A stretch of 64,000 bases of DNA from the NCBI GenBank assembly GCA_030594205.1, contig JAUVFR010000001.1:156252-220251 (forward strand). Reading direction: 5' to 3'. The notes under the pieces are model-generated. The model had not been told where the DNA came from and made no database searches. It was given only the letters and a program-made list of their open reading frames with translations. The stretch is from Methanobacteriota archaeon. Lineage in GTDB: Archaea > Thermoplasmatota > Thermoplasmata > RBG-16-68-12 > JAJISG01. The translations under genes were made by a program, and so were the position numbers. Shown one piece after another: positions 6,069-54,594 of the stretch. Positions within the stretch are counted from its first letter, which is position 1. Every line of letters starts with the position of its first letter.

Positions 6069-6926
6069 GTGGTACTCGATCTCCTCATGAGCGACCTCCT
6101 GGCCCTTTGGTGGCTCTTCCCGGTGGCCATCCTCATTGCGGGCGTGGCCATGACCTTCGGGATCGGCGGGGCCATCTTCTTCTCCCCCTTTTTTGTGATT
6201 TTCCTGTCCCTGAAGCCAGAAGTGGCCATCGCCCTGGCCATCCTCGTCGACGTCTTTGCCTTCGCGAGCGGCCTGGCCGGGTACGTGCGGAGCCGGCTGG
6301 TCAACTACCACGTGGCGACCCGGTTGCTGCCCTTCGTTGCCGTCTTCGCCCTCGTCGGGGCCCTCGTGGGGAAAGCCCTTCCTTCCCACGTACTGGAGCT
6401 GACTTTGGCAGTCGCGCTCTTCCTTCTCGCCGTCGCCTTCCTGGGCCGCGAACGAAGCGTCCACTTCGTGGACCACCCCCTCCATCCGACCCGGACCGAG
6501 TCCGAGCGGGCTTCTTGGGCGGACTGGTGGCAAGACATTGAGAATAAACCCCTCCTCTTCGCGACGAGCTCGATTGGCGGATTGTTTGTGGGGTTGGTCT
6601 CGGCGGGCATTGGCGAGGTGAATGCCTACAACTTCGTCCGCTGGTTGAAGATGGACCCCGCCTTTGCCGCGGGCACGTCGGTCTTCATCATCGCGTTTGC
6701 CAGCCTCGTGACGACCCTGTTCAACCTGTCCTTTTTTGCAGTGGCGGACCCGCAGGACCTCTTGGTCATGACGCAGATTGCCATTTGGGCCGTCCCCGGC
6801 GTGGTTCTGGGGGCGCAGCTCGGGGTGCGTACTTCAAAGCGGATCGACCGGCGGAAGGCACTTCTTGCGCTTCCCGTTCTCTTCGCGGCCGTGGGGATTC
6901 TCACCGTTGTCAACGCGCTCTTCTGA
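6069..6926 (+). CDS. TauE/SafE (DUF81) family anion exporter, polytopic membrane protein
   Basis: 285 aa, two homologous halves of 3-4 TM helices each. G-rich motifs GIGGAIFFSPF and GIGEVNAYNFV. Confidence 0.8.
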   Translation: MVLDLLMSDLLALWWLFPVAILIAGVAMTFGIGGAIFFSPFFVIFLSLKPEVAIALAILVDVFAFASGLAGYVRSRLVNYHVATRLLPFVAVFALVGALVGKALPSHVLELTLAVALFLLAVAFLGRERSVHFVDHPLHPTRTESERASWADWWQDIENKPLLFATSSIGGLFVGLVSAGIGEVNAYNFVRWLKMDPAFAAGTSVFIIAFASLVTTLFNLSFFAVADPQDLLVMTQIAIWAVPGVVLGAQLGVRTSKRIDRRKALLALPVLFAAVGILTVVNALF

Positions 6927-7769: not shown

Positions 7770-8120
7770 CTAGGCAGGAATCGCGCCAGGGAGGGCCGTC
7801 GCATATCGCCCTCCCAGCCGTCCGCGCTCCGTCAGGAACGCCATGAAGCGGAACGGAGCTCGCCAGAGGACTCGGACGAGACCACGGAGGGAGAGATCGC
7901 GGAGGACGAGCTCCACCTGAGAGGGGGAGTATCCCTCCGTGCTCTCCAGAAGTTCGTCCTGGGAGAGGATGCCGGCTCCGTCCCGGTTGAGGGCTTCCAG
8001 GATGCGGCGATGGAGCGGGGTGGCGGACCCGTTGCGAAGGGGCGTCCGACTCAGGTCCACGACCTTGATCCCACCACTTCTGGGTGTGCGTGTGCCCAGG
8101 ACCTCTTGCTCGGGGTTCAT
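7770..8120 (-). CDS. Small winged-helix DNA-binding protein (hypothetical)
   Basis: 116 aa. HRRILEALNRDGAGILSQDELLESTEGYSPSQVELVLRDLSLRGLVRV is wHTH-like. Confidence 0.4.
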   Translation of the reverse strand: MNPEQEVLGTRTPRSGGIKVVDLSRTPLRNGSATPLHRRILEALNRDGAGILSQDELLESTEGYSPSQVELVLRDLSLRGLVRVLWRAPFRFMAFLTERGRLGGRYATALPGAIPA

Positions 8121-8258
8121 GAGTCTGAATGCCCTCGGGGGCTACTTGAACCCGAAAGAAAGATTCTTCCTGAAGACAGGAGTCGCCTCGAGGTCGCACG
8201 GGCAGCTTCATAGGCGACCGGCCTCGCTTGAGTCGAGAGAGCGGGAGACCATCCTACA

Positions 8259-8651
8259 ATGGTCCGCGGATCGTCCCACTTGGTTGCGGCTTGGAAGCTT
8301 CTGCGCTTCGATCCGGGTACGGGCTCCCTCGTGCCCCCTCTTCAGGGGACCGAACTCACGGCCGTGTTTCAAGACGATGGGAGGCTGGTCGGGTCGGCTG
8401 AATGCAACAGCTACGCCACGACCTACGAGGCGTCCAGTTCGTCATTGACAGTCAACTCTCTGGTCGCCGCGACTCGGATGTGGTGCGCAGATTCCGAAGG
8501 AGCGATGGCGCAGGAGGATGCCTTCCTTCAGGCCTGGGGCCGGGTTACCGCGTACGGCATTCACGAGAACCGTCTCGAGCTCGCGTATGCGAAAGGGATT
8601 ACCGTCCTCGACTTCATCCTTGCCGAAACCCCGGAACGGAACGCGGAGTGA
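8259..8651 (+). CDS. META/HslJ-like (DUF306) domain protein
   Basis: 130 aa. GRLVGSAECNSYATTYEA....ATRMWCADSEGAMAQEDAFLQAW...LELAYAKGITVLDF has the META-domain spacing. Confidence 0.55.
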   Translation: MVRGSSHLVAAWKLLRFDPGTGSLVPPLQGTELTAVFQDDGRLVGSAECNSYATTYEASSSSLTVNSLVAATRMWCADSEGAMAQEDAFLQAWGRVTAYGIHENRLELAYAKGITVLDFILAETPERNAE

Positions 8652-9754: not shown

Positions 9755-10732
9755 GTGCAAATTCTCGTCATTGGGGGTACGGAGTTCATCGGCCGGCACA
9801 CGGTGGAAGAGCTCCTTCGCCGCGGCCACGATGTGACGGTCTTTCATCGAGGTCGCTCGCCTAACCCCTTTGGATTCCAAGTCAGGGAGCTTCTGGGGGA
9901 TCGTATGCGCCATCGAGACGTTCAGGTCGCGTTCTCGGGGGCGGTGTTCGATGCGATCGTTGACCTTGTGTACGTGTGGGGACCGGGCACGGGTCCCCCT
10001 GAGATCGCGTCTGTTCTCGATGCGGCGAAGAAGGGGTTAGAGCGGTACGTTTTCCTGAGCAGCTGCGGGGTGTATGACCCCCACGGGCCTCTTCCGGCCA
10101 CGGAGGACGGCCCCCGCACGCCTGCCCTCGGGAAATACAGTGCCGACAAGATCGCGACGGAGGATTTCCTGCTCGAGGCCCAGCAGGAGGGCCGGGTTGG
10201 CGTCTCCATCATACGGCCCCCCCACGTCTACGGACCCTACAACAACGTGCCTCGGGAGTCGTGGTTCTGGGATCGCATTATGGCAGGCCGGCCTGTCATC
10301 GTCCCGGATCAGGGCGAAACTCTCACACATCTCGCCGCCGTTTGGGACGTTGCGTGGGCCTTGTCAGAGGCCGTTGAGAATCCGGTCGCAGAAGGAGGGA
10401 TCTTCAATATCGCGGACGCGGAGCCGATCAGTCAGACGGCTCTCGTTGATCTCTTGGCGCGGGCTGCCAGCCGCGATGTTGAGAAGATTCTTGTGCCCCG
10501 CTCACGCATATACGATTATGGAGGCCGCGCCTCGGCCCCGCCGTTGTACTTCGCCCTCGCGTTGGACACCGACTTCGATCTAACCGTCGACATCTCGAAG
10601 GCCGTCCGTGTCCTCGGATTCCAGCCTACCGATCCGCTCGAGGGCTTCCGGCGGACGTTCGACTGGTACATGGAGGCGGACCGTACACGAAGGCCGAAAT
10701 TCTCCTTCGATCGGCTGCTCCTGGGTCGCTAA
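9755..10732 (+). CDS. NAD-dependent epimerase/dehydratase (extended SDR) family protein
   Basis: Rossmann motif VQILVIGGTEFIGRH. YxxxK context GKYSADK. Start placed at GTG 9755 (TTG 9740 also possible); the ORF-track start 9674 would overlap tag. Confidence 0.8.
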   Translation: MQILVIGGTEFIGRHTVEELLRRGHDVTVFHRGRSPNPFGFQVRELLGDRMRHRDVQVAFSGAVFDAIVDLVYVWGPGTGPPEIASVLDAAKKGLERYVFLSSCGVYDPHGPLPATEDGPRTPALGKYSADKIATEDFLLEAQQEGRVGVSIIRPPHVYGPYNNVPRESWFWDRIMAGRPVIVPDQGETLTHLAAVWDVAWALSEAVENPVAEGGIFNIADAEPISQTALVDLLARAASRDVEKILVPRSRIYDYGGRASAPPLYFALALDTDFDLTVDISKAVRVLGFQPTDPLEGFRRTFDWYMEADRTRRPKFSFDRLLLGR

Positions 10733-11775: not shown

Positions 11776-12171
11776 CTAAGAGTCCACCAGGCTCGCGATC
11801 CGCTTCGGCGCCCCCCCGGCTCTCAGCTTAGCCACCGCCGCCTCTAGGATGGATATGAGCCTCTCTCGTTCGGATGGCCCTCGGCCCTCCATAGTCTGTC
11901 GCACCTGGCGAATCGAGGCAGGATCGGGGTCGACCGATTTCCGCGTGGTCCCGCCTCGGAGGAGCAGGAAGGCCACGAGGGCCAGGGCCACGCCGGCCGC
12001 GAGGAAGAAAAGGCTGAGTGCCGCCAGGCCTACCTGCAGCAGGAGAGCGAAGATGGCGTCCATGACCGCCCTTGGCGGTGCGAAGGCCAGGATTCGAACC
12101 TGGGGGAACCCCTTCGGGACTAGGCCCTGAATCCAGCGCCGTTGACAGAACTGGCACCCAAGATTCAGCAC
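11776..12171 (-). CDS. Small membrane protein or gene fragment whose middle part is paralogous to residues ~40-95 of the 8-TM protein at 13696..14703; possible pseudogene
   Basis: 131-aa ORF. Its segment FAPPRAVMDAIFALLLQVGLAALSLFFLAAGVALALVAFLLLRGGTTRKSV matches FAPPGAVIDALFDLLLTVGLAALNFAFLAAGVSLALMAFLLLRGGITRKSV of the 335-aa protein. The ORF reads through the tRNA-Leu-like fragment. Confidence 0.3.
   Translation of the reverse strand: MLNLGCQFCQRRWIQGLVPKGFPQVRILAFAPPRAVMDAIFALLLQVGLAALSLFFLAAGVALALVAFLLLRGGTTRKSVDPDPASIRQVRQTMEGRGPSERERLISILEAAVAKLRAGGAPKRIASLVDS
11930..12082. repeat. About 150-bp segment duplicated (about 80% identity) at 14406..14558, abutting a truncated tRNA-Leu-like fragment
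   Basis: Direct nucleotide comparison: gaccgatttccgcgtgGtcccgcctcggaggagcaggaaggcca... in both copies. The two copies diverge exactly where the tRNA-like sequence begins (about 12082). Confidence 0.6.
12079..12155 (-). tRNA. Truncated tRNA-Leu-like element: D-arm through 3' acceptor strand, with no matching 5' acceptor strand (pseudo-tRNA / att-site remnant)
   Basis: Minus-strand sequence GCCAGTTCTGTCAACGGCGCTGGATTCAGGGCCTAGTCCCGAAGGGGTTCCCCCAGGTTCGAATCCTGGCCTTCGCACC is about 88% identical to the 3' 60 nt of the intact tRNA-Leu(CAG) at 21434..21518, including the long variable arm and T-arm. No GCGAAGG 5' strand is present upstream and the anticodon stem has one mismatch. Confidence 0.5.
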
Positions 12172-13695: not shown

Positions 13696-14703
13696 TCACG
13701 TTTCCATACGGGGTCCGGCATTCTCCAATCCTGAGGGCTTCGGCAAGGTCCGGCTTTCCGCTTTCACCGGCGACCTCAGCCCGAAGGTCGAGGCCGGGAG
13801 GATGAAGAGGATGAGGCCCAAGAGGGAGAGCTGAGCGAGGTAAGTGTTCTGGAACATCCTCCCCGCGATACCGATCAGGAGGAATCCGACACCCATCCAC
13901 CGTTGCGGCTTGTCATGAAGGAGGTCCGCCAGATCGTACGCGTAGACGCCCAGGGCCAGGGCGTAGATGGGCGCGGGCAGGAAGAGGGTAAAATATACGG
14001 TCCAGACCGCAGCCAGGGAGGCGAAGGCCGACTGGGAGGCCAGCACGAAGGCGATCGCAGGCAGGGCGGCAAGGGGGACGAACCACGGTCTCCACCGGCG
14101 TCCGGGAAGGAGCAGGAAGGGCGCGGTGACCGCGAGGATTTCCCCCACGCTGAAGATCTCAGTGGCATAGGGCAGAGGAACCCCCATGGCGAACACGCTC
14201 AGGCTGGCCTGGAAATAGTAGGTGGTGCCGAGGGCGGCCGCGATGGCACAAGTGGCGAGGAAGTCCCAGGAGCGCTTCCGGGGAAAGAGGAGTAGAAGGG
14301 GGACGACGACGGCCATGGAAAGGCCATGATAGAGCAAGGGCACGCTGGGATGGAGGAGGAGGGGGAGCAGGAGTCCGAGCGCGAGGAGGAACCAGATGAG
14401 GAGGGCGACCGATTTCCGCGTGATCCCGCCTCGGAGGAGCAGGAAGGCCATGAGTGCTAGGGAGACGCCGGCGGCGAGGAAGGCGAAGTTGAGCGCCGCC
14501 AGGCCTACCGTCAGCAGGAGATCGAAGAGTGCGTCGATGACCGCTCCGGGAGGCGCGAAGGCACCCCCACGCAGGAGGAGGCGAAGCAGGACGAATTCGA
14601 CGATGGAAGCGGCGGCGACGGAGATCAGGAGAATGCGCAGCCAGGGGACGACTGCTTCTCTAGCCTGCGACGCCCCCATGTTGCGTCTCCGTCCGGTTCG
14701 CAC
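13696..14703 (-). CDS. Polytopic (~8 TM) membrane protein of unknown function, last gene of the molybdoenzyme operon
   Basis: 335 aa, highly hydrophobic. Its start overlaps the TorD-like gene end by 44 nt, which suggests co-transcription. Three His residues lie in predicted membrane segments. Confidence 0.6.
   Translation of the reverse strand: MRTGRRRNMGASQAREAVVPWLRILLISVAAASIVEFVLLRLLLRGGAFAPPGAVIDALFDLLLTVGLAALNFAFLAAGVSLALMAFLLLRGGITRKSVALLIWFLLALGLLLPLLLHPSVPLLYHGLSMAVVVPLLLLFPRKRSWDFLATCAIAAALGTTYYFQASLSVFAMGVPLPYATEIFSVGEILAVTAPFLLLPGRRWRPWFVPLAALPAIAFVLASQSAFASLAAVWTVYFTLFLPAPIYALALGVYAYDLADLLHDKPQRWMGVGFLLIGIAGRMFQNTYLAQLSLLGLILFILPASTFGLRSPVKAESRTLPKPSGLENAGPRMET
14406..14558. repeat. 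Second copy of the ~150-bp duplicated segment (inside the 8-TM protein gene)
   Basis: See 11930..12082. Confidence 0.6.
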
Positions 14704-42313: not shown

Positions 42314-44191
42314 TCACTCCGGCGCGAAGAGGTCCTCTCGGAGACCATGCACTTCCGTGACCTCGAAGGCGCCCGTCGGTAGGATGCGTTCCAACTCGTC
42401 GGCCGGGACCTCGAAGGCGTGGGAAAGGGTTCGCGCCAGGTCCTGGCGTCGTAGAGGCCCCCCGGGCTTCACGAGAAGGTACCGACTCGAGAGGGCGCGC
42501 AGGGCATCGGGATCGCCGCCGATCACTCTCCGGTTCCCCTCGACCTCCACCTCGCCGAGAGCGAGGACCAGGGCCAGCTTGTGGGCGTAGTTCCGCTTCC
42601 CCCGAATCACGAAGGATCCTTTCTTGAGGTACTCCCCGCTCTCGGCGGTCTTGCTCACTTGGTCGGGGGTCACCCAGAAGGCGCTGCCGGACCCCAGGCC
42701 GTGCCTCCACGCCTTGGAGTACACCAGGGCGAAGCGGCTGGCCTCCCGCAGTGTCTGTTCGTCCGCCTCGGCCCCCCCCTTCACAACCACGCTCGGGGCC
42801 CCCGTCAGATCGGCGTGGACGTACCGGTCTCCCGGGTTCAGGTGCTTGCGCACCAGCTTCTCGTTGGATCGCGCATCCCTGCCTCCGAGGATGAGGATCC
42901 TTCGACTGGAAAGGGTCCATCGATAGGCATCGAACCAGAATCGCTTCGAGGGAGCGTAGATCGGCTTCCTCCTCTCCCGCCGCTGTGCCGATTTCCGGAC
43001 GCGCCGGAGCTCGCGGCGGCTCTCCTCGAGAGCGTTCTCAATGCGGATCGCCTTCTCCGTGAGGACCTTCTTCTGCTCGTAGAAGCGCTGCGCGTTTTCG
43101 TCGACGCTCTCCTCGTAGTGGAGTTCCAGGGACGTCTGTCCCGCACGCACCGTGAAGGTCTTGCGTTCCGGATCCACACCCTCCCGGACGCGGCCTTCTC
43201 GAGCCAGCCGGATCTGACGATCCACATCCTGGTAATGGGCATACAGGTAGCCCGCCCCTTGGTCGGCAACCTCCGCGCCCTCGAGGGCCTCCGCCAGTGT
43301 CTTTTCCTGGCGTCGAATCCGGCGTTCCATGCGAGTGACCCCTGGGTCCGGCTTCTCCTTCTCCCTTGGCTTCAGGGAGGTGACGTAGAACTGGAGGGCC
43401 TCGCTCATGGTGGCGTAGGGGCGCGCCTCGTATCCCTCATAGACCTTCAACGGAAACGGAACGACGTCGATAGGCCCTTCGTTCAGGACCACCGCGGGGG
43501 TAGGGGATGCGAGCTGGCCCAAGAGGGCCTGGAGGCTTGTGTACAGGCCCTCGATCTCAGCTTCGGTGAGTTCCCCCGCAGGCTGCTGCTTCGAGAGCTC
43601 GGTCCGGGCGCAGAGTTCCTCGGCGTACAGTCTCCCCAGGCTTAGGGCCGTGGCGAGGATCTTCACGAGGGGGTCCGTCTGCCCCGCGAGCGATTTCGTG
43701 AGCGCATCCCTATCCATCTCGAGGAGATTGACCCCCTCGGGGGGAAACATGTAGGGGATGCCTCTCCGCACTTCGCGGGATTTCCACTTTCCTCCTGCGA
43801 GGGCCACTTCGATCTCTCCCTCCTTCAACAGGAGAAGGTTCCCACGACCGAACATCTCGAAGACCAACGTTCCCGGGGTCTTCCTCTCCCACTCGAGGAG
43901 GAGAATGCGGTCGAAACCCCTCTGGGACACCTCCCGGATCACCGCGTTGCTCAACGCTTTGCGCAGTGCCTGGGCGAAGGGGGGTGGCTGCGCGGGTCTC
44001 TTGAATCCCTGGCCGAGAAACAGCCAACGGCCGGGATGCACGAAGAGTTCTGTCTTTCCTCGACGTGGGACATGGAAGCGGAAGATGAACGAGGGCCCGT
44101 CTTGGTAGACCTTGCCCAGGTAGGCGCCGCGGAGGGCCTGCAACTCCTCGGCAAGCAGGCGGATGTCGAAGCTGGTCAAGGCCTCCTTCAC
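42314..44191 (-). CDS. NFACT-family protein (FbpA/Rqc2/NEMF homolog; DUF814-containing)
   Basis: 625 aa. N-terminal NFACT-N region (MKEALTSFDIRLLAEELQALRGAYLGKVYQ) and NFACT-R-like C-terminal region. Confidence 0.75.
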   Translation of the reverse strand: MKEALTSFDIRLLAEELQALRGAYLGKVYQDGPSFIFRFHVPRRGKTELFVHPGRWLFLGQGFKRPAQPPPFAQALRKALSNAVIREVSQRGFDRILLLEWERKTPGTLVFEMFGRGNLLLLKEGEIEVALAGGKWKSREVRRGIPYMFPPEGVNLLEMDRDALTKSLAGQTDPLVKILATALSLGRLYAEELCARTELSKQQPAGELTEAEIEGLYTSLQALLGQLASPTPAVVLNEGPIDVVPFPLKVYEGYEARPYATMSEALQFYVTSLKPREKEKPDPGVTRMERRIRRQEKTLAEALEGAEVADQGAGYLYAHYQDVDRQIRLAREGRVREGVDPERKTFTVRAGQTSLELHYEESVDENAQRFYEQKKVLTEKAIRIENALEESRRELRRVRKSAQRRERRKPIYAPSKRFWFDAYRWTLSSRRILILGGRDARSNEKLVRKHLNPGDRYVHADLTGAPSVVVKGGAEADEQTLREASRFALVYSKAWRHGLGSGSAFWVTPDQVSKTAESGEYLKKGSFVIRGKRNYAHKLALVLALGEVEVEGNRRVIGGDPDALRALSSRYLLVKPGGPLRRQDLARTLSHAFEVPADELERILPTGAFEVTEVHGLREDLFAPE

Positions 44192-44278: not shown

Positions 44279-44352
44279 GCCGTTGTGGCTCAGCCTGGTA
44301 GAGCGACGCCTTGGTAAGGCGTAGGTCCCGGGTTCAAATCCCGGCAACGGCT
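44279..44352 (+). tRNA. tRNA-Thr (anticodon GGU)
   Basis: GCCGTTGTGGCTCAGCCTGGTAGAGCGACGCCTTGGTAAGGCGTAGGTCCCGGGTTCAAATCCCGGCAACGGCT. The acceptor GCCGTTG/CAACGGC pairs, the anticodon loop is TTGGTAA, and a TATA-like aaagctatat lies about 30 nt upstream. Confidence 0.85.
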
Positions 44353-44381
44353 CTATAACTAAGGGTCGCGGCTCCGTCAAA

Positions 44382-46142
44382 TTATGGATCAGACATGGGC
44401 TCGGCGGGCCCGTCCCTCCTGACGAGAGGAAGCTCCACTCGGCTCGGATGCTCCACATCGTGGTGGAGGATCACGTGGGCGGTCCGCGCGTCCCTTGCCG
44501 ATTCCTCGGCAACGACGCCCCCGCTGTTGTAGTTCTTCTGGACAAAGATGGAATTGGGCGAGCGGAGGAGGAGGCGTAGGCGACTGCCCCGGGCCACCTG
44601 TCGGGAGAAGAAGGTGAACCCGTCGAACACGTACTCGTGGGCCTCTCCAGGCGTGGCCAGCCTCTCCTGCGTGAGGGACTCGCGATAACGGGCCCGGAGG
44701 AGGTCCCGACTCAGGAAGACATGGGAGCCATCAGGGAGGAGTTCGGAGACGGTCACCACGAAATCGGTATCCGGCACGTCGAGGGTGATCCACGCCACAA
44801 GACGCAGGAAGCCCGTGACCTCTGTGTCCTCGGGGAACGGGGAACTATGATACACGAGACCGTTTCCGTACAGGCGGAGGGCGTAGCGCTGGTCTGTGAG
44901 GTAGTTCTTGACGAGTTTCTTCTCTAGCTCCGCGGGCCGGAGATCCAGGGGGTCGTACACGTACGCATCAGGCTCGGAGTCCTTCGGCGGGGCATCCTGC
45001 AGGGTGCCAGAGTGAAAGATGTCGTTCGCGCGACCGTCCCGGGAGTTCAGATAGAGCCTCTCCCGGCCGTCGGCGTTGGCCTCCAGGGCATCTGCGTACT
45101 TCCACTCTTCCGCACCCATCACGAAGTAGGCCACGCGCTTCTTCAGGAACTCGGGCTTGGAGCCGCCCTTCAGGGTCCAGTCGTACCACTCTCGGTGCAG
45201 CTCGTTCAGGTCGATCACGCTGACCTCGTCGAACTTCAGGCCCCCAACCTCCCTGTTCGGCGTCCGCGTGCCGGCGTGGTCCCAGGGGCCGATGACCAGG
45301 TGGTGTTTCGCCGTCGCCTCGGGCGTCCCGTGTTGCATGTGCATGCGGTAGTAGTGCAAGGCCCCGGGCTGGTCGCCGTCGTAGTGGCCGGTGATGGTCA
45401 GAATCGGGATGGCGATGCGCCGATACTCGTCCGGCGTCAACGCCATGGGCTCCCAGTACGGGTCCGGCGTCGGATGTTGGATCCATGTCTGAAAGAGGGT
45501 GGAGAGGTTGCCGACGACTTGGTCTAGGTCCTTGAACGGCCGGTGATGCAGGTACAGTTCGCGGAACTTCTCGATCCAGAAGGCATCCTCGCCGAAGAGG
45601 GCGGAGTTTGCCGTCAACCCGCTGGTTAGGGTGAGCCACCGCATCTCGTAGGGAAACAGGATGTTCTTGAAGAACGGGAAGTCCACGGCCGCGTGGGCCG
45701 CGGCCGCCGGCACGATGGCCTTCAGGTGGGGAGGGAACTCCTTCAGCGTGGTCCACTGGTTGAAGCCGGAGTAGGAGCCGCCCCACATTGTGACCGAGCC
45801 GTCGCACCAGGGTTGCGTCGCCAGCCACTCCACCACGTCGTGGCCATCCCGGCCCTCGTTCACGAAGGGCTCGAACTCTCCCTCGGAGTTGCCCCGACCC
45901 CGGCAGTCCACGACGAGGAAGGCGTCGCCGTGCTGCGCAAAGTTGTACGCCCGCTCGTGGTAGGTGTCCGCTGTGTAGGGGGTGAGGGTAAAGATGGCCG
46001 GAGTGGGCGTCTCCTCCTTGGGGCGATAGAGGGTGGCGTTGAGGCGGACGCTATCCCGGAGCGGAATCTGAACGCCCCAGCTGAAGTCCACCTCCCCCTC
46101 GGGGCCTTGTTTCGAGGCCCCCTTTCCCGATTCTTGTCTCAT
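44382..46142 (-). CDS. CocE/NonD-family alpha/beta hydrolase (S15 X-Pro dipeptidyl-peptidase-like)
   Basis: 586 aa. The nucleophile elbow MWGGSYSGF and an N-terminal alpha/beta-hydrolase region plus C-terminal beta-sandwich-like region are typical of the family. Confidence 0.8.
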   Translation of the reverse strand: MRQESGKGASKQGPEGEVDFSWGVQIPLRDSVRLNATLYRPKEETPTPAIFTLTPYTADTYHERAYNFAQHGDAFLVVDCRGRGNSEGEFEPFVNEGRDGHDVVEWLATQPWCDGSVTMWGGSYSGFNQWTTLKEFPPHLKAIVPAAAAHAAVDFPFFKNILFPYEMRWLTLTSGLTANSALFGEDAFWIEKFRELYLHHRPFKDLDQVVGNLSTLFQTWIQHPTPDPYWEPMALTPDEYRRIAIPILTITGHYDGDQPGALHYYRMHMQHGTPEATAKHHLVIGPWDHAGTRTPNREVGGLKFDEVSVIDLNELHREWYDWTLKGGSKPEFLKKRVAYFVMGAEEWKYADALEANADGRERLYLNSRDGRANDIFHSGTLQDAPPKDSEPDAYVYDPLDLRPAELEKKLVKNYLTDQRYALRLYGNGLVYHSSPFPEDTEVTGFLRLVAWITLDVPDTDFVVTVSELLPDGSHVFLSRDLLRARYRESLTQERLATPGEAHEYVFDGFTFFSRQVARGSRLRLLLRSPNSIFVQKNYNSGGVVAEESARDARTAHVILHHDVEHPSRVELPLVRRDGPAEPMSDP

Positions 46143-46149
46143 AGGGGAG

Positions 46150-46196
46150 CCCGAGAGGTAGCGGGATACAAACCTTTTCTCTGACTCCCGGCAACG
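46150..46196 (+). repeat. Direct repeat copy 1 (47 nt), ending in a core shared with the 3' end of tRNA-Thr
   Basis: cccgagaggtAgcgggatacaaaccttttctctGactcccggcaacg matches copy 2 at 52684 in 45/47 positions. The terminal actcccggcaacg matches the tRNA-Thr 3' end atcccggcaacgg. It ends 8 nt upstream of the hydrolase start codon. Confidence 0.75.
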
Positions 46197-46282
46197 CTCC
46201 TGTTAAGGGGTTCAGAGATCACAAGGCCTGTAAGGCTTGAGAAACGTTATCTAAGCTCAATCGGGTTAACCTCTGGGAACAC

Positions 46283-46705
46283 GTGACAGTCAGGGACCTC
46301 ACCGTCAAGGAACGCATCCTCCTCCACCTCTTCGACTTCAACCGTTTCGCCGAGGAATACGAGGCGCCTATCGAGGTTACGCAGAGCGGTATCGCGGAGG
46401 CCACAGGCATTCGGATTCAGCATGTGACGCAATACGTCAAACCGCTCCTTGAGGAAGGACGCGTGGAGGGCAGGATCTCACATATCAGCCAGAGGCCACG
46501 GCGCCGTAAGGTGTACTTTCTCACTGCCCAGGGGAAACATAATGCGGCTACTTTGCGGAACTCCCTCTTCAAGGAGAAGGTTCCACTCCGAACCCGGAGT
46601 GGGTTGATCCAGGAGTTTCCGCTCTCGAGAGTCTACCAGGCCGACCGTCGCGGGACACGTCTCCCCGAGCTACTGGATGAACTTCGCTCGACGGGATTCA
46701 TTTGA
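46283..46705 (+). CDS. Winged-helix (MarR/TrmB-like) DNA-binding protein
   Basis: 140 aa from GTG. LTVKERILLHL...EVTQSGIAEATGIRIQHVTQYVKPLLEEGRVEGRIS. The gene sits in a visibly lower-GC stretch. Confidence 0.55.
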   Translation: MTVRDLTVKERILLHLFDFNRFAEEYEAPIEVTQSGIAEATGIRIQHVTQYVKPLLEEGRVEGRISHISQRPRRRKVYFLTAQGKHNAATLRNSLFKEKVPLRTRSGLIQEFPLSRVYQADRRGTRLPELLDELRSTGFI

Positions 46706-46789
46706 ACTTCGAGGTCAGATTGGTGGGGCTCGAGAGGGAGGAACAGGGTCAACATCTCCGTGGGTGGCCACGCGCTGTGAGGAAGGCCC

Positions 46790-47539
46790 TCAGCCGCTCC
46801 CTTCAATGTGCGTCTGAATCTGAGGGCCCACGGACCTCCTAGCCCAGCTCAGGTCCTCCGGTGTGTCGACCTCTATCCAGGGACGTCCCTGGATGGACGA
46901 GGCCATCGCAGGACGGCCCGCGCGAGCCATCTGGGCGAAGGCCTCCTCGTAGTAGATGCGCGGTCCCTGCTGCCTGAGAGCCTCCCTCAGGCTGTCGTAG
47001 AAGCCGGCGGAATCCCTCACATGGGCAACCCCGATGTACTCCCCATCGGCCTCTGAGGGCTCCAGCTCCTTGCTTATGCGTACCACGCATCCATCCTCGA
47101 TGACGACCTTCATCTCCTCTCGGCCCAGCTCCTTCTCCGTGTCCACGGCCAGGACAGCGCTCTCGTCCCCGCTCCGAGTCACGTCCTCGGCGATCTCCGG
47201 GTGGAAGAGAGTGTCGCCGTTCACCAGCAGGAAGCTATGGCCCTCGACCCGCTCCCTGGCAAGGTACACGCTGTAGGCGTTCTCCGTCACCTTCGACCTG
47301 GGGTTCCTCACGTAGGCCACGTCGAAGCTCCACTCCTGGGCGGCGCCAATGTGATTCCGCAGGACCTCCTCCTTGTAGCCGACCACCAGGACCACCTCCT
47401 CCACATCCACCACCTTGCAGGCATGGCCGATATAGTCCAGGATGGTCCTGTCGCCGACCTCCAAGAGGGCCTTCGGCCTGTCCCGGCCCAGCTCCCCCAT
47501 GCGCCTCCCGCTCCCGGCCGTCAGGATCAGGGCCCTCAT
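46790..47539 (-). CDS. Sugar/polyol-phosphate nucleotidyltransferase (MobA-like NTP-transferase fold), a candidate CTP:inositol-1-phosphate cytidylyltransferase (IPCT-like)
   Basis: 249 aa. MRALILTAGSGRRMGELGRDRPKALLEVGDRTIL is an NTP-transferase glycine-rich loop. It is divergently paired (44-bp spacer) with a CDP-alcohol phosphatidyltransferase gene. Confidence 0.7.
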   Translation of the reverse strand: MRALILTAGSGRRMGELGRDRPKALLEVGDRTILDYIGHACKVVDVEEVVLVVGYKEEVLRNHIGAAQEWSFDVAYVRNPRSKVTENAYSVYLARERVEGHSFLLVNGDTLFHPEIAEDVTRSGDESAVLAVDTEKELGREEMKVVIEDGCVVRISKELEPSEADGEYIGVAHVRDSAGFYDSLREALRQQGPRIYYEEAFAQMARAGRPAMASSIQGRPWIEVDTPEDLSWARRSVGPQIQTHIEGSG

Positions 47540-47583
47540 TGCTCTCCCCCGGGGGCCCTATGCCGCAACCATAAAAAGTATTT

Positions 47584-48213
47584 TTGACTCTGGGTCGGAG
47601 GCACGGAGGGAGAGCCTTGGAATGGAAGTACCCCCTGACCACCTACGTATATCGTCGCCTCTCGAGGCCCCTGGCCGCCCGCCTGGCCAGGACCAGAATC
47701 ACGCCCAACCAGGTGACCTGGATCGGCGGCACCGTCGGCATGGCCGGGGCCGTCCTCGTGGCCCTGCAGCAGTTCTACCTGGCGGTCGCCCTGCTGTTCA
47801 TCTCCGGTATCCTTGACTGTACCGACGGCGACCTGGCCAGGGCCAAGGACCAGGTGACGCGCTACGGCGCCTACCTGGACCACATGATGGACCGGTGGGT
47901 AGACGGCGCCCTCGTCGTTGCCCTGGTCCTCACCAACTTCGAGAACCTCTGGCTGGTGGGGCTCCTGGCGATGATGGGCACCTACATGGCCACGGCCCCC
48001 AGGACCAAGGCGGAGGCTGAGGGTGTATCCTGCCTGGTGGGCCTGGCGACCAGGGACCTGCGCATGCTCATCTGGTGGGTGGGCCTCCTCCTGCTCCAGC
48101 CCTACTCGCTGCTCCTCCTCCTGGCCCTCTTGGGGCTCATCACCTCCATCCACAGGACCCACCACTCCCTGGGCCAGCTGCGGACCGCCGAGGCGGAAGG
48201 CGGGGCCGCCTAG
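47584..48213 (+). CDS. CDP-alcohol phosphatidyltransferase family protein, a candidate di-myo-inositol-phosphate-phosphate synthase (DIPPS-like)
   Basis: 209 aa. DCTDGDLARAKDQVTRYGAYLDHMMDRWVD fits D-G-x2-A-R-x8-G-x3-D-x3-D. 5-6 TM helices. Confidence 0.75.
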   Translation: MTLGRRHGGRALEWKYPLTTYVYRRLSRPLAARLARTRITPNQVTWIGGTVGMAGAVLVALQQFYLAVALLFISGILDCTDGDLARAKDQVTRYGAYLDHMMDRWVDGALVVALVLTNFENLWLVGLLAMMGTYMATAPRTKAEAEGVSCLVGLATRDLRMLIWWVGLLLLQPYSLLLLLALLGLITSIHRTHHSLGQLRTAEAEGGAA

Positions 48214-48955
48214 GCATCACCTGAGGAATGCCGCGATGCCATCGATGCCATGGCCAGCCAGCCAGGAATAATCGCAGCAGAAACGACGCTGTTGAACGCC
48301 AGAAGAGGTGTCCCTCGCGCAGCCGTCCGACGCCTTGCTATGTCTGGGGACGGCCTTCAACTACCTCCACGCGGCGGAGGATTGGCAGCGCGCCCTTCGA
48401 CGATTTCGGGATCACCTCCACGCCCTCGGTCCACCTCCCTCGATTGCGGGGGTTGGGATAGGGAAATCTACCCCTTGAGGCCAAACCGGTCCCGAGCGGA
48501 CTCCATAGGAGATCGCCATTGGATAGATGAAATCCCCAGCCGGACAACGCGCAGAGGGTATCGGACGCCCGGCGACGGCCGTAAGCCTCCTTCCATGCAT
48601 TTCCGCCTCCTTTGTGGTGCATGCGTCATGAACTTCGCTTACGGCCCATGCATTCTTATTCGATGACCGAACGTCCGTAGCTTTACTAACAACCTTACGA
48701 CACTTTTCACGCCTGGCGAAGTCCACAAAATGCCAGTTTTGAAGGTCTTTGGTATTCCAACCGCGCATTGGGGCGTCCGAAAGAGCATCAACCCCGCCAT
48801 TTCACTCACGGTGAACGCCCGAGAGCGCGGGCGTCCCCTTCGTCCCCCTGCGCGCGTGGGGGGTCCGGTGGATGCGGCGAGGCTCTTCAGGTGCCTCGCG
48901 TTTCGGCTCGAGGACACTAATCCGGTTCCCGCAGCCACTTGCTTACGTCGAGGAA

Positions 48956-48993
48956 AGCAGGCTACGAACCTTTTCTTCGACTCCCGGCAACGG
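48956..48993 (+). repeat. Direct repeat copy 3 (degenerate, about 33/38 identity to copies 1 and 2), with the tRNA-Thr 3'-end core
   Basis: agcaggctacgaaccttttcttcgactcccggcaacgg. It lies in about 950 bp of non-coding, lower-GC DNA. Confidence 0.65.
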
Positions 48994-49166
48994 AGCCTCC
49001 GAGCGGACTCCCAAGAATCGGGAGAACGGAAAATCTCCCGGCCCTACCCAGACCCTTCCTAGTCACTTGCTTAGTCTATAGTTTAATTGGTCCAAATGGT
49101 CCAAGTGGCTGCAATGCCAGACTCCAATTCCGGTGTGTCCGATTGCCGAGCGTAGAACAGGACAGC

Positions 49167-52100
49167 CTATCCCGGGGTTCGTCCGAGCAGTTCTTCCACG
49201 ACAGTCTCCAATTCGAGTCTCTCGGCCCGTTCCCGAGCCGCTTTATACGCCTTGGACGGAAGTTGGTCTTCGAGCTTCCTGAGAAGACTGCTCGCCTCTT
49301 CCTCGATAGCCCGCCGGCGAAGGGTCGAATACTGTCTGCTGGCTGGATGACGGAGGACAAGGCTCAGGAGCTCGACGGCCCGGTCCTCCTCCTGATTTGA
49401 GGCCTTCACCTTGGCCAAATCATACAGCGTTCCCACGATCTCTCGAGTCTGCCCAATCTCCTCAGAGATTGCCAGGCTGGTCAAGTAGTGCTTCTCGGCC
49501 TCCTGGATCTCGCCGCCTTGCAGGGCGACGCTCCCAAGGTTGTTCTGAAACAACTGTCTCCCGCGTTGGAATCCGATCTCCTCCACGTTCCTCAGACCGC
49601 GCTCGTAGGTGGCCCGGGCCTTTGGAAGGTCCCCGGTTGTGACCGCCAAGGCCCCTAGACCCACGAGAGGCCAGGTCTGTCCCACGCGGTCGCCCTGCTC
49701 TTCGAACATGGCGAGGCTCTGGTTCCCCAACCGGGCAGCCTTCTCCAAGTCCCCACTTTGGAACGCACCAAAGAAGAGCCAGGCCATCGAATAGGCTTCC
49801 ATCAATGCGTCTCCCAACTCCCGGGCAATCTCAAGCGCCTCCCCCGCGGCTGCCTCGACCTCCGCTTGCCGATTGAGAAACGCACCGTTTAGGGCGAGGC
49901 AGAAAAGCGGAATGAGCCGTTCCTGTCGGCGATCCATCTTCCGGAGGGTGTCCACGGCCTCTTCGGCGAGTCGTAGTCCCTCCTCCGGGGAACCCAGAAG
50001 GCTGGTAAAGTAACCCTGGATAGCTGTGACCCTCGCTTCCACAACGACGGATTCGGGGTCTTCTGGCTTGCCCTGAAGCGCCTCAGCCGCCGCCGCCAGG
50101 AGCTCGACAGCTTCGTGGTGCCAGCCGTGAAGGTCGTAGACGTGAAGAAAGCCGTTGAGAAATCGGGAGAGGCCACCGGGGTCCTTTCTTCCGACCCAGT
50201 AGCGCCAGGCGGCCCGAATGTTGACGATGTCGTCTTTGATCTCCCGATGGGCGGCCAGCTGCCGCTGGCCCTGAAGGTCGTCCAATCGGTTCTCCACGAA
50301 TCCTGCAAAGTAGGTCCCGTGGGCCTGATCGGCTGTCGCCCTTGCAGCCTCATCGCTCCCGAGCTTCTCCTCCGCGTATTGCCTCACCCCCTCGTGGATC
50401 CAGAAACGACCCGTGTCGGGGTCCCGATGCAGCAAGGACTTTCGTTCCAGGGCCACGAGGTCGCGGACGGAGGCGGTTGCAACCTCCTCCCCCGCCTGGC
50501 GGGTGAAGCCGCCCTGGAAGACGGAGAGCGCCCGTAGGAGGTCCTGGTCCGCGGGCGTGAGGAGGGACCATGAGGCCTCAAAGGCAGCCCGAAGGCTTTG
50601 CTGGCGGCGGGGCAGGTCCGGTGCCTCGGACTGGAGGAAGTCGAGGCTGGTTTCGATCTCCTTTGCGATTTCCGCAAGAGACAGGACGTCTACCCAGGCT
50701 GCCGCGAGGAGAATGCCCAGGGGGTTGCCCTCGACGGAGCGGAGGATCCCGCGGAGATTGGGGAGGTCGTCCTCCTGTAGCGCGAACCCAGGTTCCACAT
50801 TCTCCGCCCGCTGAAGGAACAGCTGCACTGCGCTGGACCCGAGCGCCTCCTCCGAGCGCTCCCATTCCCCGACCGCGAGCCCAGACAGAGGTCGGACCCG
50901 CTCCGCCTGGAGATTAAGCCTCTCTCTGGAGGTAACGAGGAGAGCGACTCTTGGGGCGGTCTCCAGGATCCGCTGGACAAAGTCCGCCCCGTCGAGGAGG
51001 TGTTCGAAGTTATCCATCACGAGGAGCAGCCGTCGCCGTTGCAGGTGGTTCAGAATCTGAATGTCCGGGTCCTCCTCCGTGGATAGGGGAAAGCCTAGCG
51101 CCTCGGCGACCGCCTGCGGAATCCCCTCGGGGGACGCAACAGGGGCCAAGGACACGATGAAGACGCCGTCGGCGAAGGAACGCAGCAGTCGATAGGCCAC
51201 CCTAAGAGCGACGCGGGTCTTGCCGATGCCGCCTGGACCCACGAGACTGACCAGGCGGGACTCGAGATTCTCGAAGGCCGTCACTACTTCCTTTAGCTCC
51301 TCCTCTCGACCGACGACGGGGGCGACCTCCGCAGGCAGGTTGTGGACCGGATCCCTCTGAGGACGAACGGCCAATGGCCCTGCCCCTCTCCCCTCAGTGA
51401 GCGAGAGCGCAGTGGCCTCCGTGGGAAGCGGGATCTCGAATCGTGCGAAGTAGCGTCGAAGGTGGGCCGCCGCGTGTATGAGGGCGGCCAGGCGCTCCCG
51501 GTCCGCCAGGGCCTTCTTGTTGCAGAAGTTCAGGCCGACCGCCGTGGCCGCGAGGAGGAATTGGCCCCAGAGATCGTCGGTCAGGCTCGGATGGGTCTTG
51601 TCCACCCAACCCTGAAAGGCCCGTCGAACGACGATCGAGATGGAGGCCGCCCCTGCCAGTTCGATGGGGACCTCGTCGGCATCCAGGAGGTCGCCCCGCG
51701 CAAACCCGGCCGCGAAGCTTGCCCATTTGGGCAACGACACCTGAGGGAGAAGGTGGAGCAGATGGGAGAGCTCGAGGTATGCGTGGTCGTAGAGGAGGGG
51801 GGATTGCTGCTTGTAGAGGGCGAAGTCGATTAGATAATACCCGTCGAGTTTGTTCTCTTGGGGCGAGAATTTTGCCAGGATGTTCCCCGTGTTGAGGTCG
51901 CCATGCTGAAAACCCAGAATGGAATCGATGGGTCTCGTGTCGGACCATAGGTCCGGATCTCGGGCGTAGGCCAGGGGGTTGGGGTACGCGACGCCCTCGA
52001 GGAGAAGTCCGGGGGTCTCGGGCCGAACCCGACATACGTCTTGGAGAAACGTCTCGATCCGGCCCCCTTCCTCGAGTCGGTAGCCCAGCCAACGAGTCAG

Positions 52101-52595
52101 GAGGTCGCGGGGATGAGTCGCCCTTTCGAAGGACGCGCCTTCATTCCACTCGCCGAGTAGTCCCCCCATGACTGTCTGGGCGATGGTTGCGAATTGACCC
52201 CGGGAGCGGAAGGCCGAGAGGGGACGGTAACTCTGCAGAGATTCGCCTGCGATGGTGTAGAAGATGACCACTGAATCCCCGTATTCCACCTGTTCCATGG
52301 CGAGGTCGGGCATGTGGTCCCGCGCGAAGGGGACGGGCGCCGCCGTCCGGGCCATGCGATGGCGCTCTACCTCTCCCGGACCGTAGGGGTTCCGGCGATC
52401 GAGCTTCAGGATCAGGTGTTCCAATCGAGGCGCGTTCGCGCGCGAAGCGCTTGCGAGATAGAGATAGGCGCCCGATCGACCCCCTCCCAATCGAGAGAGG
52501 GGTGTCACCCTCAGGCCATGTCGGGCCAGGGCCTCGCGAAGCGCTTCCTGAAGGTGTTCGGGAAGCTCCTCGAACTCAGGGGCAAGCTCTGGCAT
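49167..52595 (-). CDS. Multidomain signalling ATPase: N-terminal protein-kinase-like/APH-like domain, central STAND (NB-ARC-type) NTPase, C-terminal TPR repeats
   Basis: 1142 aa. Kinase-like features: G-loop LGGGRSGAYLY, VAIK-like HLILKLD, catalytic-loop-like HGDLNTGNILAKF and DFG-like YLIDFALY. STAND features: Walker A LVGPGGIGKTRVALRVA, Walker B RRLLLVMDNFEHLL. The C-terminal ~450 aa are helical TPR-like repeats. Confidence 0.85.
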   Translation of the reverse strand: MPELAPEFEELPEHLQEALREALARHGLRVTPLSRLGGGRSGAYLYLASASRANAPRLEHLILKLDRRNPYGPGEVERHRMARTAAPVPFARDHMPDLAMEQVEYGDSVVIFYTIAGESLQSYRPLSAFRSRGQFATIAQTVMGGLLGEWNEGASFERATHPRDLLTRWLGYRLEEGGRIETFLQDVCRVRPETPGLLLEGVAYPNPLAYARDPDLWSDTRPIDSILGFQHGDLNTGNILAKFSPQENKLDGYYLIDFALYKQQSPLLYDHAYLELSHLLHLLPQVSLPKWASFAAGFARGDLLDADEVPIELAGAASISIVVRRAFQGWVDKTHPSLTDDLWGQFLLAATAVGLNFCNKKALADRERLAALIHAAAHLRRYFARFEIPLPTEATALSLTEGRGAGPLAVRPQRDPVHNLPAEVAPVVGREEELKEVVTAFENLESRLVSLVGPGGIGKTRVALRVAYRLLRSFADGVFIVSLAPVASPEGIPQAVAEALGFPLSTEEDPDIQILNHLQRRRLLLVMDNFEHLLDGADFVQRILETAPRVALLVTSRERLNLQAERVRPLSGLAVGEWERSEEALGSSAVQLFLQRAENVEPGFALQEDDLPNLRGILRSVEGNPLGILLAAAWVDVLSLAEIAKEIETSLDFLQSEAPDLPRRQQSLRAAFEASWSLLTPADQDLLRALSVFQGGFTRQAGEEVATASVRDLVALERKSLLHRDPDTGRFWIHEGVRQYAEEKLGSDEAARATADQAHGTYFAGFVENRLDDLQGQRQLAAHREIKDDIVNIRAAWRYWVGRKDPGGLSRFLNGFLHVYDLHGWHHEAVELLAAAAEALQGKPEDPESVVVEARVTAIQGYFTSLLGSPEEGLRLAEEAVDTLRKMDRRQERLIPLFCLALNGAFLNRQAEVEAAAGEALEIARELGDALMEAYSMAWLFFGAFQSGDLEKAARLGNQSLAMFEEQGDRVGQTWPLVGLGALAVTTGDLPKARATYERGLRNVEEIGFQRGRQLFQNNLGSVALQGGEIQEAEKHYLTSLAISEEIGQTREIVGTLYDLAKVKASNQEEDRAVELLSLVLRHPASRQYSTLRRRAIEEEASSLLRKLEDQLPSKAYKAARERAERLELETVVEELLGRTPG

Positions 52596-52683
52596 GTTAC
52601 AGCTTCCGGGCCTCCCGGGGCGGTGGTTAGCCAGTGGATTTCCCGTCGAGCTTCACGGGCTTCTCCGCGCCCCGAGACAGGCT

Positions 52684-52731
52684 CCCGAGAGGTGGCGGGA
52701 TACAAACCTTTTCTCTAACTCCCGGCAACGG
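52684..52731 (+). repeat. Direct repeat copy 2 (48 nt), longest match to the tRNA-Thr 3' end
   Basis: cccgagaggtGgcgggatacaaaccttttctctAactcccggcaacgg. Its 3' tcccggcaacggct is a 14-nt exact match to tRNA-Thr 44339-44352. It lies 89-136 nt upstream of the STAND gene start. Confidence 0.75.
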
Positions 52732-52909
52732 CTTCGCTTGCCCTATTTTCACGGACCCGCTCTCCCCCTTTATATGCGGCTCGCGGTTCGTCCCAAGGGG
52801 GACATCCACGGAGCGGTCTTCTCTCTCCGTCTCACCTCTTGCCCAGGCGAGAGCGGAAGCCTCACCCCTGCCCCTCCCGGAAGGGACGGAGGGGCTCCGC
52901 GTGCTCGCC

Positions 52910-53941
52910 ATGTACCCGTTCCTCGCGGAGGCTTCCCGTTACATTCGCGACCAAGGCTTGTCCCTGGAGGAGGTTCTCGATCACCGCGCCTTCCAGGGAG
53001 CGCGGAACTGGGCCCGGGAACGGGTCTTCACCTCCTTGGAGACGGGCGATCTGCCCAACCCCCCCCTATCCCGTTCGGCCGAATGTTTGGAGGCCCTCTA
53101 CGCGTACCCCCTCGCCCGCATCCTTGTATCCTGCGTCGGCGACGGTTTCCTCGTTCGCCGATTCGCCTTGGCCGAGGCGGACCTGGCGCGCCGACGTCTC
53201 TCCCGGGAGAGTGACGACTTCCTCCTCGCGGCCAGTCACGCCCTCGGACTCGACGCCCTGCGCGATGGCGCCTTTCGCCTCCACTTCAGTGACTTCCTAC
53301 GAGCGACGCGGCAGCTCCGGGGGAAGGAGTGGAAGCTGATTAATCAACCCGTCCGGGAAGGATTTGTCCTGCTGAGCCGAGACCGTTTCCTCCGCGTCGT
53401 GGAAGGACACCTGCGCAACCGCTTCGAAGCGGAGCTCCCGCTGGAGGTCAACCCCACGCTCCTCCGCGCCTTCGAGGAGGAGGTGATCGAGTTGCACACG
53501 GCGCTTCGGGATCGCCGCTCCAGGCTTCAGGGGGAGGACCTCGGAACCATCCGGGTCACCAACTTCCCCCCTTGCATGGAGAAGCTCCTCGCGACGGTCC
53601 TCGCCTCGGAGAACGTGTCCCATCCGGGACGGTTTGCCCTCGTGTCGTTCATGAACAACATCGGCCTCGGCTTCGACGAGATTTACCAGATTTTCGCCTC
53701 CGTGCCCGACTTCCGGGAGAGCGTCACCCGATACCAGATCGAGCACATCACAGGACAGATCTCGGGCACGGTGTACACGGCCCCCGAGTGCAGCACGATG
53801 AAGTCCTACGGCATCTGCCCGGGGCCGGACCGGCTCTGCGAGACCATCACCCATCCTCTCTCCTACTACCGAAAGAAGACGCGGATGTCCGGGACGGCCA
53901 AGAAGGCCCCCGCGGACCGGCCCGCGAAGGCCGCCTCCTAG
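52910..53941 (+). CDS. priL: DNA primase large subunit PriL
   Basis: 343 aa from ATG 52910. The C-terminal domain has four Cys for the Fe-S cluster: NFPPCMEKLL ... APECSTMKSYGICPGPDRLCETITHP. The upstream part of the track ORF overlaps the repeat and was rejected. Confidence 0.75.
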   Translation: MYPFLAEASRYIRDQGLSLEEVLDHRAFQGARNWARERVFTSLETGDLPNPPLSRSAECLEALYAYPLARILVSCVGDGFLVRRFALAEADLARRRLSRESDDFLLAASHALGLDALRDGAFRLHFSDFLRATRQLRGKEWKLINQPVREGFVLLSRDRFLRVVEGHLRNRFEAELPLEVNPTLLRAFEEEVIELHTALRDRRSRLQGEDLGTIRVTNFPPCMEKLLATVLASENVSHPGRFALVSFMNNIGLGFDEIYQIFASVPDFRESVTRYQIEHITGQISGTVYTAPECSTMKSYGICPGPDRLCETITHPLSYYRKKTRMSGTAKKAPADRPAKAAS

Positions 53942-54594
53942 GCGGACCCCTCTCCCGCCCCGAGGCGCTTCCAGGCCTCCACCCCCCGTTGGATGGCGGT
54001 GAGATTTCCCAGGATGCCAAACAGGAGGAGGGCATACTCCATCATGGTGAAGCTGAGGGCCCCCAGGCCGAGGAAGAGGAGGGGCTCGCTGGGATCAAGG
54101 AACAAATGAAGGAGAAGGACCAGGAGAAGGATGACGAGTCGGTCGGCTCGGCCAAGGAGTCCCCCGTAGAGGCGTCCGATGCCCACGGCCTGCGCCTGGG
54201 TCCCCAGGTAGCTCGTCAGCAGGACCCCGAGGAGGCCAAAGAAGACGATGGGCTGGCGGGCGTAGATGCTGAAGAAGAGCCCCGTCAGGATGAGGACGTC
54301 CGCATAGCGGTCGAACACATGGTCCATGAAGTCCCCCCGGGGCGACGCGATTCCCCGCAGGCGCGCCACCTTCCCGTCCAGGGCGTCCAGGAGCGAGCTG
54401 ACGGCGAGGGCGATGAAGGCTGCTGCCAGGGCTAGGACCTCATTGATGACCCCCGCGAGGGCCACGGAGAGGCCCGCGAGGCCTGCGGTTCCGAGCCCGA
54501 GCCAGGAGAGGAGGTTCGGCGAAACGTGACGCAGGCGGACGGCCATGGGCGTCAGGATTCGGTCTGCGACCCGTCGGTACGAATCCAGCACCAC
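53938..54594 (-). CDS. CDP-alcohol phosphatidyltransferase family protein (second copy; lipid head-group synthase-like, e.g. archaetidylinositol-phosphate synthase-type)
   Basis: 218 aa. DALDGKVARLRGIASPRGDFMDHVFDRYAD is the family signature. Polytopic. Convergent 4-nt overlap with priL. Confidence 0.8.
   Translation of the reverse strand: MVLDSYRRVADRILTPMAVRLRHVSPNLLSWLGLGTAGLAGLSVALAGVINEVLALAAAFIALAVSSLLDALDGKVARLRGIASPRGDFMDHVFDRYADVLILTGLFFSIYARQPIVFFGLLGVLLTSYLGTQAQAVGIGRLYGGLLGRADRLVILLLVLLLHLFLDPSEPLLFLGLGALSFTMMEYALLLFGILGNLTAIQRGVEAWKRLGAGEGSA

Follow-up and report, generated by a model that had tools for sequence, protein, structure and literature searches.

A 64-kb window from a contig of at least 284 kb, belonging to an uncultured Thermoplasmata archaeon, carries a variable island of about 8.4 kb of accessory genes between a tRNA-Thr(GGU) gene and the DNA-primase gene priL; all coordinates given without a locus name are those of the window. 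The island falls into three blocks (modules A, B and C) separated from each other and from priL by a 47-nt repeat, here called R, whose 3' end copies the 3' end of the tRNA-Thr gene. We conclude that this is a lineage-variable island at the 3' end of tRNA-Thr(GGU), which probably arose by site-specific integration just before the priL promoter. Related genomes show the empty site and, elsewhere, the same flanks around unrelated cargo; the end of the tRNA gene is duplicated at the far boundary, and R is restricted to such islands. The structure is of an ordinary, known kind, namely the scar of mobile DNA integrating at a tRNA gene.

A repeat search recovered three copies of R, all in the same orientation on the plus strand (46150-46196, 48946-48992 and 52684-52730; copies 2 and 3 are annotated as far as 48993 and 52733), and a pattern built on the conserved parts of R found no fourth copy in the window at up to three mismatches (0 expected). 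Each copy consists of an arm of about 33 nt that is not tRNA sequence, followed by 11-14 nt of the tRNA 3' end. The exact match to tRNA-Thr is a 14-mer, TCCCGGCAACGGCT, in copy 3 (52720-52733), a 12-mer in copy 2, which ends in TTCGACTCCCGGCAACGG, and an 11-mer in copy 1, where the 33-nt arm is joined to ACTCCCGGCAACG. k-mer sharing places the left copy of the target duplication at 44339-44352, the last 14 nt of the tRNA gene and again TCCCGGCAACGGCT. A preliminary description of this locus, made from the sequence alone, had reported three same-orientation repeats after the tRNA gene and judged a chance match to it unlikely, and both points hold: the 11-mer core TCCCGGCAACG occurs five times in the window against 0.15 expected, four of the five being the tRNA gene and the three R copies. 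The fifth match (25793, minus strand) is unrelated, lying inside a coding region with flanks that show no similarity. Several details of that description had to be reassigned. The identity of 45/47 that it gave for copies 1 and 2 belongs to copies 1 and 3 (96%; 32/33 in the arms), the middle copy being the divergent one (34/47 to copy 1, 32/47 to copy 3, and 19-20/33 in the arm); the tRNA 14-mer that it assigned to copy 2 is in copy 3; and priL, which it placed after copy 2, follows copy 3. Its view of the repeats as tRNA-derived stands for the last 11-14 nt and fails for the other ~33 nt. A 10-mer common to the arm and the tRNA, CGAGAGGTAG, first looked promising for a tRNA origin of the arm as well. 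Alignments of the arm with the tRNA body, or with the intron-bearing tRNA-Thr allele of two related loci (L043 and L049), were no better than those of shuffled arms, the gapped arm-tRNA scores being reached by 26-300 of 300 shuffled arms, and this origin was rejected. Among four R copies tested for folding, copy 2 folded better than shuffled sequences (z = -2.2) and three did no better; an attC-like or other conserved hairpin in R was ruled out by this comparison.

Contigs with the related loci were fetched via homologues of the flanking NFACT and priL proteins. Two of them, L047 and L048 (the latter from a second sample), contain the empty site: the NFACT gene, tRNA-Thr, about 60 nt, the priL TATA box and priL. 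This is the arrangement that the preliminary description had predicted for a relative lacking the insertion. In L047 the end of the tRNA gene and its flank, TCCCGGCAACGGCT followed by TCGCC, align with copy 3 of the window, TCCCGGCAACGGCT followed by TCGCT, and the alignment continues into the conserved priL promoter. Copy 3 is therefore the displaced original tRNA end, and the inserted DNA extends from 44353 to about 52719; 14 nt of the target were duplicated.

The distribution of R was determined with a sequence-only model, R1, built from six R copies and searched against 185 kb comprising the window and the related loci. R1 matched solely at island positions, always in the orientation of the tRNA and in six lineages: the three window copies (48.9, 44.8 and 46.6 bits for copies 1, 2 and 3), one copy each in L052, L043 and L002, a new copy in L049 (8011-8045, E 2.5e-4), which contains TCCCGGCAACGGCTTC, and a weak match in L045 (1640-1684, E 0.019). 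A scan of a genome collection returned 18 matches, against a rough chance estimate of ~17; these were chance-level bacterial matches and the contig of L002 itself. Pattern scans of metagenome and viral collections gave no true R matches. A viral or provirus source was rejected after four IMG/VR scans that gave nothing or chance matches, among them a low-GC phage open reading frame (L053) and a phage tRNA-like region beside a ribosome-binding site (L085); a metagenome match (L026) turned out to be a bacterial terminator hairpin that follows a gene of the XRE type. Across the window, the related loci and the public collections, R is specific to this island in this lineage. The generic repeat at many unrelated loci that would have spoken against an integration scar was seen in none of them; a copy of R next to an integrase, which the preliminary description had suggested looking for in relatives and metagenomes, was likewise not found in the collection scans.

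Seven related islands share the same flanks (NFACT/RqcH and tRNA-Thr on one side, priL on the other) and carry unrelated cargo; blastn of the relatives' loci against the window island detected no shared island DNA. The 3.9-kb island of L043 holds a hypothetical gene, a PKD-domain protein, a GNAT acetyltransferase and an HTH_45 gene, and the 8.6-kb island of L049 an AAA_16 protein, hypotheticals, a heliorhodopsin and a PKD-domain protein. In L002 the tRNA end adjoins a lone GNAT acetyltransferase gene, with an R copy after it, and L001/L045, L046 and L052 each have yet other genes. The sole near-identical contig, L051 (99.8% identity), has the STAND gene of module C, copy 3 and priL arranged as in the window. 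The PKD-domain gene and ~70 nt upstream of it share 86.6% nucleotide identity between L043 (7471-8882) and L049 (8408-9816), compared with 68% for the core flanks, indicating that island genes move between lineages. This shared segment ends just past the stop codon and lies to the left of R in L043 and to the right of R in L049.

No integrase was found in any island, so that site-specific integration can only be inferred; so are the recombinase responsible and the order of events. R would be an attR-type junction, with the ~33-nt arm contributed by the inserted DNA and the last 11-14 nt, the tRNA 3' end, serving as the region of crossover. As the displaced original end of the tRNA, copy 3 is still joined to the ancestral downstream flank, and copies 1 and 2 would be internal junctions left when sites of the same kind recombined again. 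A tyrosine-type integrase with a short att core is likely to have carried out this site-specific recombination, and the enzyme would by now either be lost or be encoded at another place in the genome. Between copies 1 and 3 the arms agree at 32/33 positions, and copy 3 has diverged from its positional counterparts (20/29 in L052, 14/31 in L043), which points to copy 1 as a recent duplicate of this genome's own site. The comparison of the copies thus suggests that modules B and C (46197-52683) were inserted as one block into an existing R beside priL, duplicating 47 bp, as the latest event; this fits better than three independent arrivals in age order. The successive integrations at the tRNA end proposed in the preliminary description agree with the empty site and the target duplication, and a simple series from oldest to newest is at odds with the near-identity of copies 1 and 3. 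The island content is also turned over by exchange between related lineages.

Integrases were sought at several levels. No Pfam or PHROG match to an integrase or recombinase was obtained for any open reading frame of the island, as the preliminary description had noted, and no integrase or transposase domain for the ~30 other open reading frames of the window. The precomputed Pfam annotation of the seven related islands lists no integrase either, and no free or integrase-bearing element with R was found in any collection scanned. A decayed integrase in 48214-49166 was considered and rejected, with no Pfam or PHROG match at E up to 1 and no coding periodicity. Fragments of the SSV type, int(N)/int(C), were looked for at copy 2, where the overlapping open reading frames have neither family matches nor codon periodicity; those over copies 1 and 3, which were not scanned separately, are antisense to the CocE and STAND genes or form an upstream extension of the priL reading frame.

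These negative results weigh against integration at the tRNA gene, and other observations do so too. The identity shared by the tRNA and R is only 11-14 nt, insertion versus precise deletion is not strictly polarised by a phylogeny, and the CocE, nucleotidyltransferase and CDP-alcohol transferase genes have a native-like composition. In addition, the arm is still recognisable in L049 (~15/23, hand alignment) despite a core identity of ~68%, and an inert scar should have decayed further. The conservation of the arm in so distant a relative counts in turn for a live site, at which R would be recombined by a recombinase encoded elsewhere and the modules would be integrase-less cassettes, often of a single gene, anchored at the tRNA. 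The packing of module A, one open reading frame set 28 nt from the tRNA end and 8 nt from R, and the single GNAT gene of L002 between the tRNA end and R have the form expected of such cassettes, none of the seven islands has an integrase (0/7), and the near-identity of copies 1 and 3 beside the diverged counterparts of copy 3 would reflect recent recombination at R. The gene-sized PKD-domain module on opposite sides of R in L043 and L049 can be read in the same way, although the boundaries of that module carry no R. With no candidate recombinase found, no circular or alternative junctions observed, no conserved attC-type hairpin in R, three genes in mixed orientation plus decayed DNA in module B and an unchanged arrangement in the 99.8%-identical strain L051, we regard a live site as unlikely. 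The fuller proposal, an active site of ~47 bp into which cassettes are inserted or reshuffled in trans, some bringing their own promoter in the arm, appears rather improbable to us; if true, it would give Thermoplasmata a functional counterpart of integrons or of cis-mobilizable elements.

Two other explanations do without recombination at R. In one, the main role of R is that of a duplicated promoter or operator acting on the minus-strand genes on its left, and its likeness to the tRNA is secondary. In copy 1 the minus strand reads GAAAAGG-TTTGTAT at -37 to -24 from the CocE ATG (centred at -27), a geometry that suits an archaeal B recognition element and TATA box with a leaderless mRNA, and the arm of copy 1 probably does drive CocE expression, judging from this motif and its position. 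Most R copies also have a minus-strand gene on their left (CocE, STAND, GNAT in L002, HTH_45 in L043, heliorhodopsin in L049 and a hypothetical gene in L045). The distance from R to the start codon, however, varies (8, 31, 89, ~180, ~300 and ~390 nt), the TATA-like bases are not retained in copy 2, L049 and L045, and copy 2 faces non-coding DNA. L002 keeps neither motif nor spacing and has a better TATA (TTTATT) between R and the gene. Since the other copies retain neither the motif nor its spacing, a promoter role of R is at most secondary, and as the main explanation, which would leave the exact 14-mer of the tRNA end, the empty site and the sharp 47-nt boundaries at 96% identity unaccounted for, we consider it highly doubtful. 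In the other explanation, DNA taken up from relatives recombined homologously within the conserved flanks, and the R copies are passive duplications. The high conservation of the flanks and the PKD gene, 86.6% identical against 68% for the core and with no repeat at its boundaries, are what such exchange would produce. It does not explain why the tRNA 3' end is exactly duplicated at the far boundary of the island, nor why R occurs at module boundaries in constant orientation, and we find it most improbable as an account of the whole. Integration at the 3' end of tRNA-Thr is thus the reading that we retain.

The cargo agrees with the preliminary description, which had listed a CocE hydrolase, a winged-helix regulator with two transferases and decayed DNA, and a STAND/TPR protein; the assignments rest on Pfam and NCBIfam matches. 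Module A (44354-46149) has a single gene on the minus strand (44382-46142), encoding a CocE/NonD hydrolase (Pfam Peptidase_S15 and PepX_C; NCBIfam CocE_NonD, 287 bits). It is tightly packed: 28 nt separate its stop codon from the tRNA end, and 8 nt its ATG from repeat 1. Module B (46197-48945, mixed strands) contains genes for a winged-helix regulator (46283-46705, plus strand), a sugar-phosphate nucleotidyltransferase (46790-47539, minus strand) and a CDP-alcohol phosphatidyltransferase (47584-48213, plus strand), with non-coding DNA from 48214 onwards. A minus-strand open reading frame of 209 aa at 47536-48165 was dismissed as a shadow frame (GC content of 0.88 at first and 0.62 at third codon positions [GC3], and a low-complexity translation). 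The stretch 48214-49166 (~950 nt, 56-60% GC), which holds repeat 2, displays no codon-position GC bias or periodicity, and the open reading frames in 48250-49400 have no Pfam or PHROG match. Module C (48994-52683) opens with ~170 nt of non-coding DNA, followed by the minus-strand gene (49167-52595) for a STAND NTPase of 1142 aa with a TCAD9/kinase-like N-terminal region and C-terminal TPRs (Pfam TCAD9, AAA_22/AAA_16/NB-ARC, TPR_12 and TPR_MalT). GC3 is core-like, at 0.85-0.91, in the CocE (0.85), nucleotidyltransferase and CDP-alcohol transferase (0.91) genes; it is lower in the winged-helix (0.70) and STAND (0.75) genes, and the non-coding stretch is also lower.

The intact tRNA-Thr(GGU) gene, which forms the attL-like side, is on the plus strand at 44279-44353 according to ARAGORN and 44279-44352 according to Rfam (RF00005, 71.2 bits). 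To its left is the minus-strand NFACT/RqcH ribosome-rescue gene (42314-44191; Pfam NFACT_N and NFACT-R_1), which is syntenic in all relatives. The right flank consists of the priL promoter and priL (52769-53941, plus strand; Pfam DNA_primase_lrg), with the TATA box TTTATATG at 52769-52776; TATA box and leader are conserved across relatives. The start of priL is uncertain, and a gene caller placed it at 52901 in L051, the 99.8% identical strain. Just 3' of the TATA box, a stretch of ~45 nt, CCCAAGGGGGACATCCACGGAGCGGTCTTCTCTCTCCG (52790-52835, plus strand), is near-invariant in the window, L043, L045 and L052, and the intergenic DNA around it is not conserved; it may represent a conserved 5' leader or else N-terminal coding sequence that was mis-called. 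A second, core copy of a CDP-alcohol phosphatidyltransferase gene (53938-54594) adjoins priL in all relatives. The Rfam gathering scan of the whole window reported tRNA-Thr alone as a known RNA family.

In L043 (5997-6121) and L049 (1326-1450) the tRNA-Thr(GGU) gene has an intron of 50 or 52 nt at the canonical position; these genes were missed by ARAGORN in default mode and detected with aragorn -i. Their T stem is altered on both strands (GGGGG/CCCCC, not CCGGG/CCCGG), and the R copy near priL in the L043 island (9852-9867) and that of the L049 island (8011-8045) keep the CCCGG version. The L049 island has two more families of intergenic repeats, three copies each, which alternate between genes: one of 37 nt (1675-1711, 5547-5583 and 6599-6635) and one of 34 nt (4818-4851, 5759-5792 and 8254-8287). 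R also resembles D2, an intergenic repeat of L049, at ~73% over 22 nt (hand count), which was judged to be at chance level.

The window holds a second tRNA-bounded island. The intact tRNA-Leu (21433-21518, minus strand) is followed 9.3 kb downstream, in direct orientation, by a partial tRNA-Leu(CAG) of 69 nt (12078-12146, minus strand) that is 90% identical to tRNA positions ~20-86. The intact gene was found by ARAGORN and is absent from the output of the window at the Rfam gathering threshold. Between the two copies are genes for a molybdopterin oxidoreductase, a 4Fe-4S subunit, an EB_dh haem subunit, a NarJ-like chaperone, a membrane protein and a glyoxalase/riboflavin-kinase fusion; the search for an integrase in this island gave none. 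A 160-nt segment abutting the partial tRNA (11928-12087) is 84% identical to 14403-14562, an internal part of the gene for the 335-aa membrane protein of this island, so that the flank carries a truncated paralogue of the membrane-protein gene (open reading frame 11776-12171). Pieces of tRNA-Leu recur as scars in the L052 island as well as in the window, and their frequency here counts in favour of integration at tRNA-Thr. In L052, a tRNA-Leu 3' fragment (~329-371, minus strand; variable arm, T arm and acceptor) matches the window tRNA-Leu at 38/43 positions; it is inverted and has the R copy near priL ~40 nt to its right.

The gap between tRNA-Thr and priL is a hotspot of gene gain and loss in an uncultured Thermoplasmata lineage. 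Its cargo includes a STAND/TPR protein of conflict type, lipid- or solute-related transferases, hydrolases, acetyltransferases and one heliorhodopsin. None of the seven islands has an integrase although the site is conserved and recently duplicated. R, in the form of model R1, provides a compact marker for such islands in metagenome-assembled genomes, useful in annotation and pangenome analysis.

Among described archaeal elements, the 3' part of a tRNA gene is the target, and tandem integration and loss of the integrase after integration are known (PMC8371274); short att sites, with a median of 17 bp, are reported from mesophilic archaea (PMC6563490). Such elements are recognised by their integrase, or in the SSV type by split int fragments overlapping att, none of which was found here. 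The island also resembles integron arrays in its small ordered modules, repeated site-like sequence and fixed anchor. Unlike integrons it has no IntI, no attI and no imperfect-palindrome attC, the neighbouring genes have R on their 5' side, and module B is multi-gene with both orientations. In the tycheposon arrays of Prochlorococcus, new arrivals push older elements inward, and remnants and further partial tRNAs are scattered about the island (Hackl et al., bioRxiv 10.1101/2020.12.28.424599). Partial tRNAs between neighbouring elements and scattered remnants are found here too; tycheposons are defined by their tyrosine recombinases and replication modules and have demonstrated excision, whereas here only the arrangement is known. 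The ssrA islands of Dehalococcoides are tandem and bounded by a 20-bp repeat matching the 3' end of ssrA, with a conserved 15-bp non-ssrA motif just upstream of each repeat; some have no integration genes, and for these an origin as cis-mobilizable elements brought together by accretion was proposed (McMurdie et al., 2011, PMC3146451). The present island is likewise tandem and downstream of a stable-RNA gene, with target-end repeats (11-14 nt), a non-target motif upstream of each repeat and strain-specific cargo. It differs in its target, tRNA-Thr in an archaeon, and in its much smaller modules (1.8-3.7 kb); 16 of the Dehalococcoides islands carry a serine-recombinase module (dsiB), and no recombinase was seen in the seven islands here. 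Three modules and three plus-strand R copies, with no recombination genes of their own, fit the layout of tandem accretion of cis-mobilizable elements, and the Dehalococcoides ssrA islands and the tycheposon arrays are the closest known structures.

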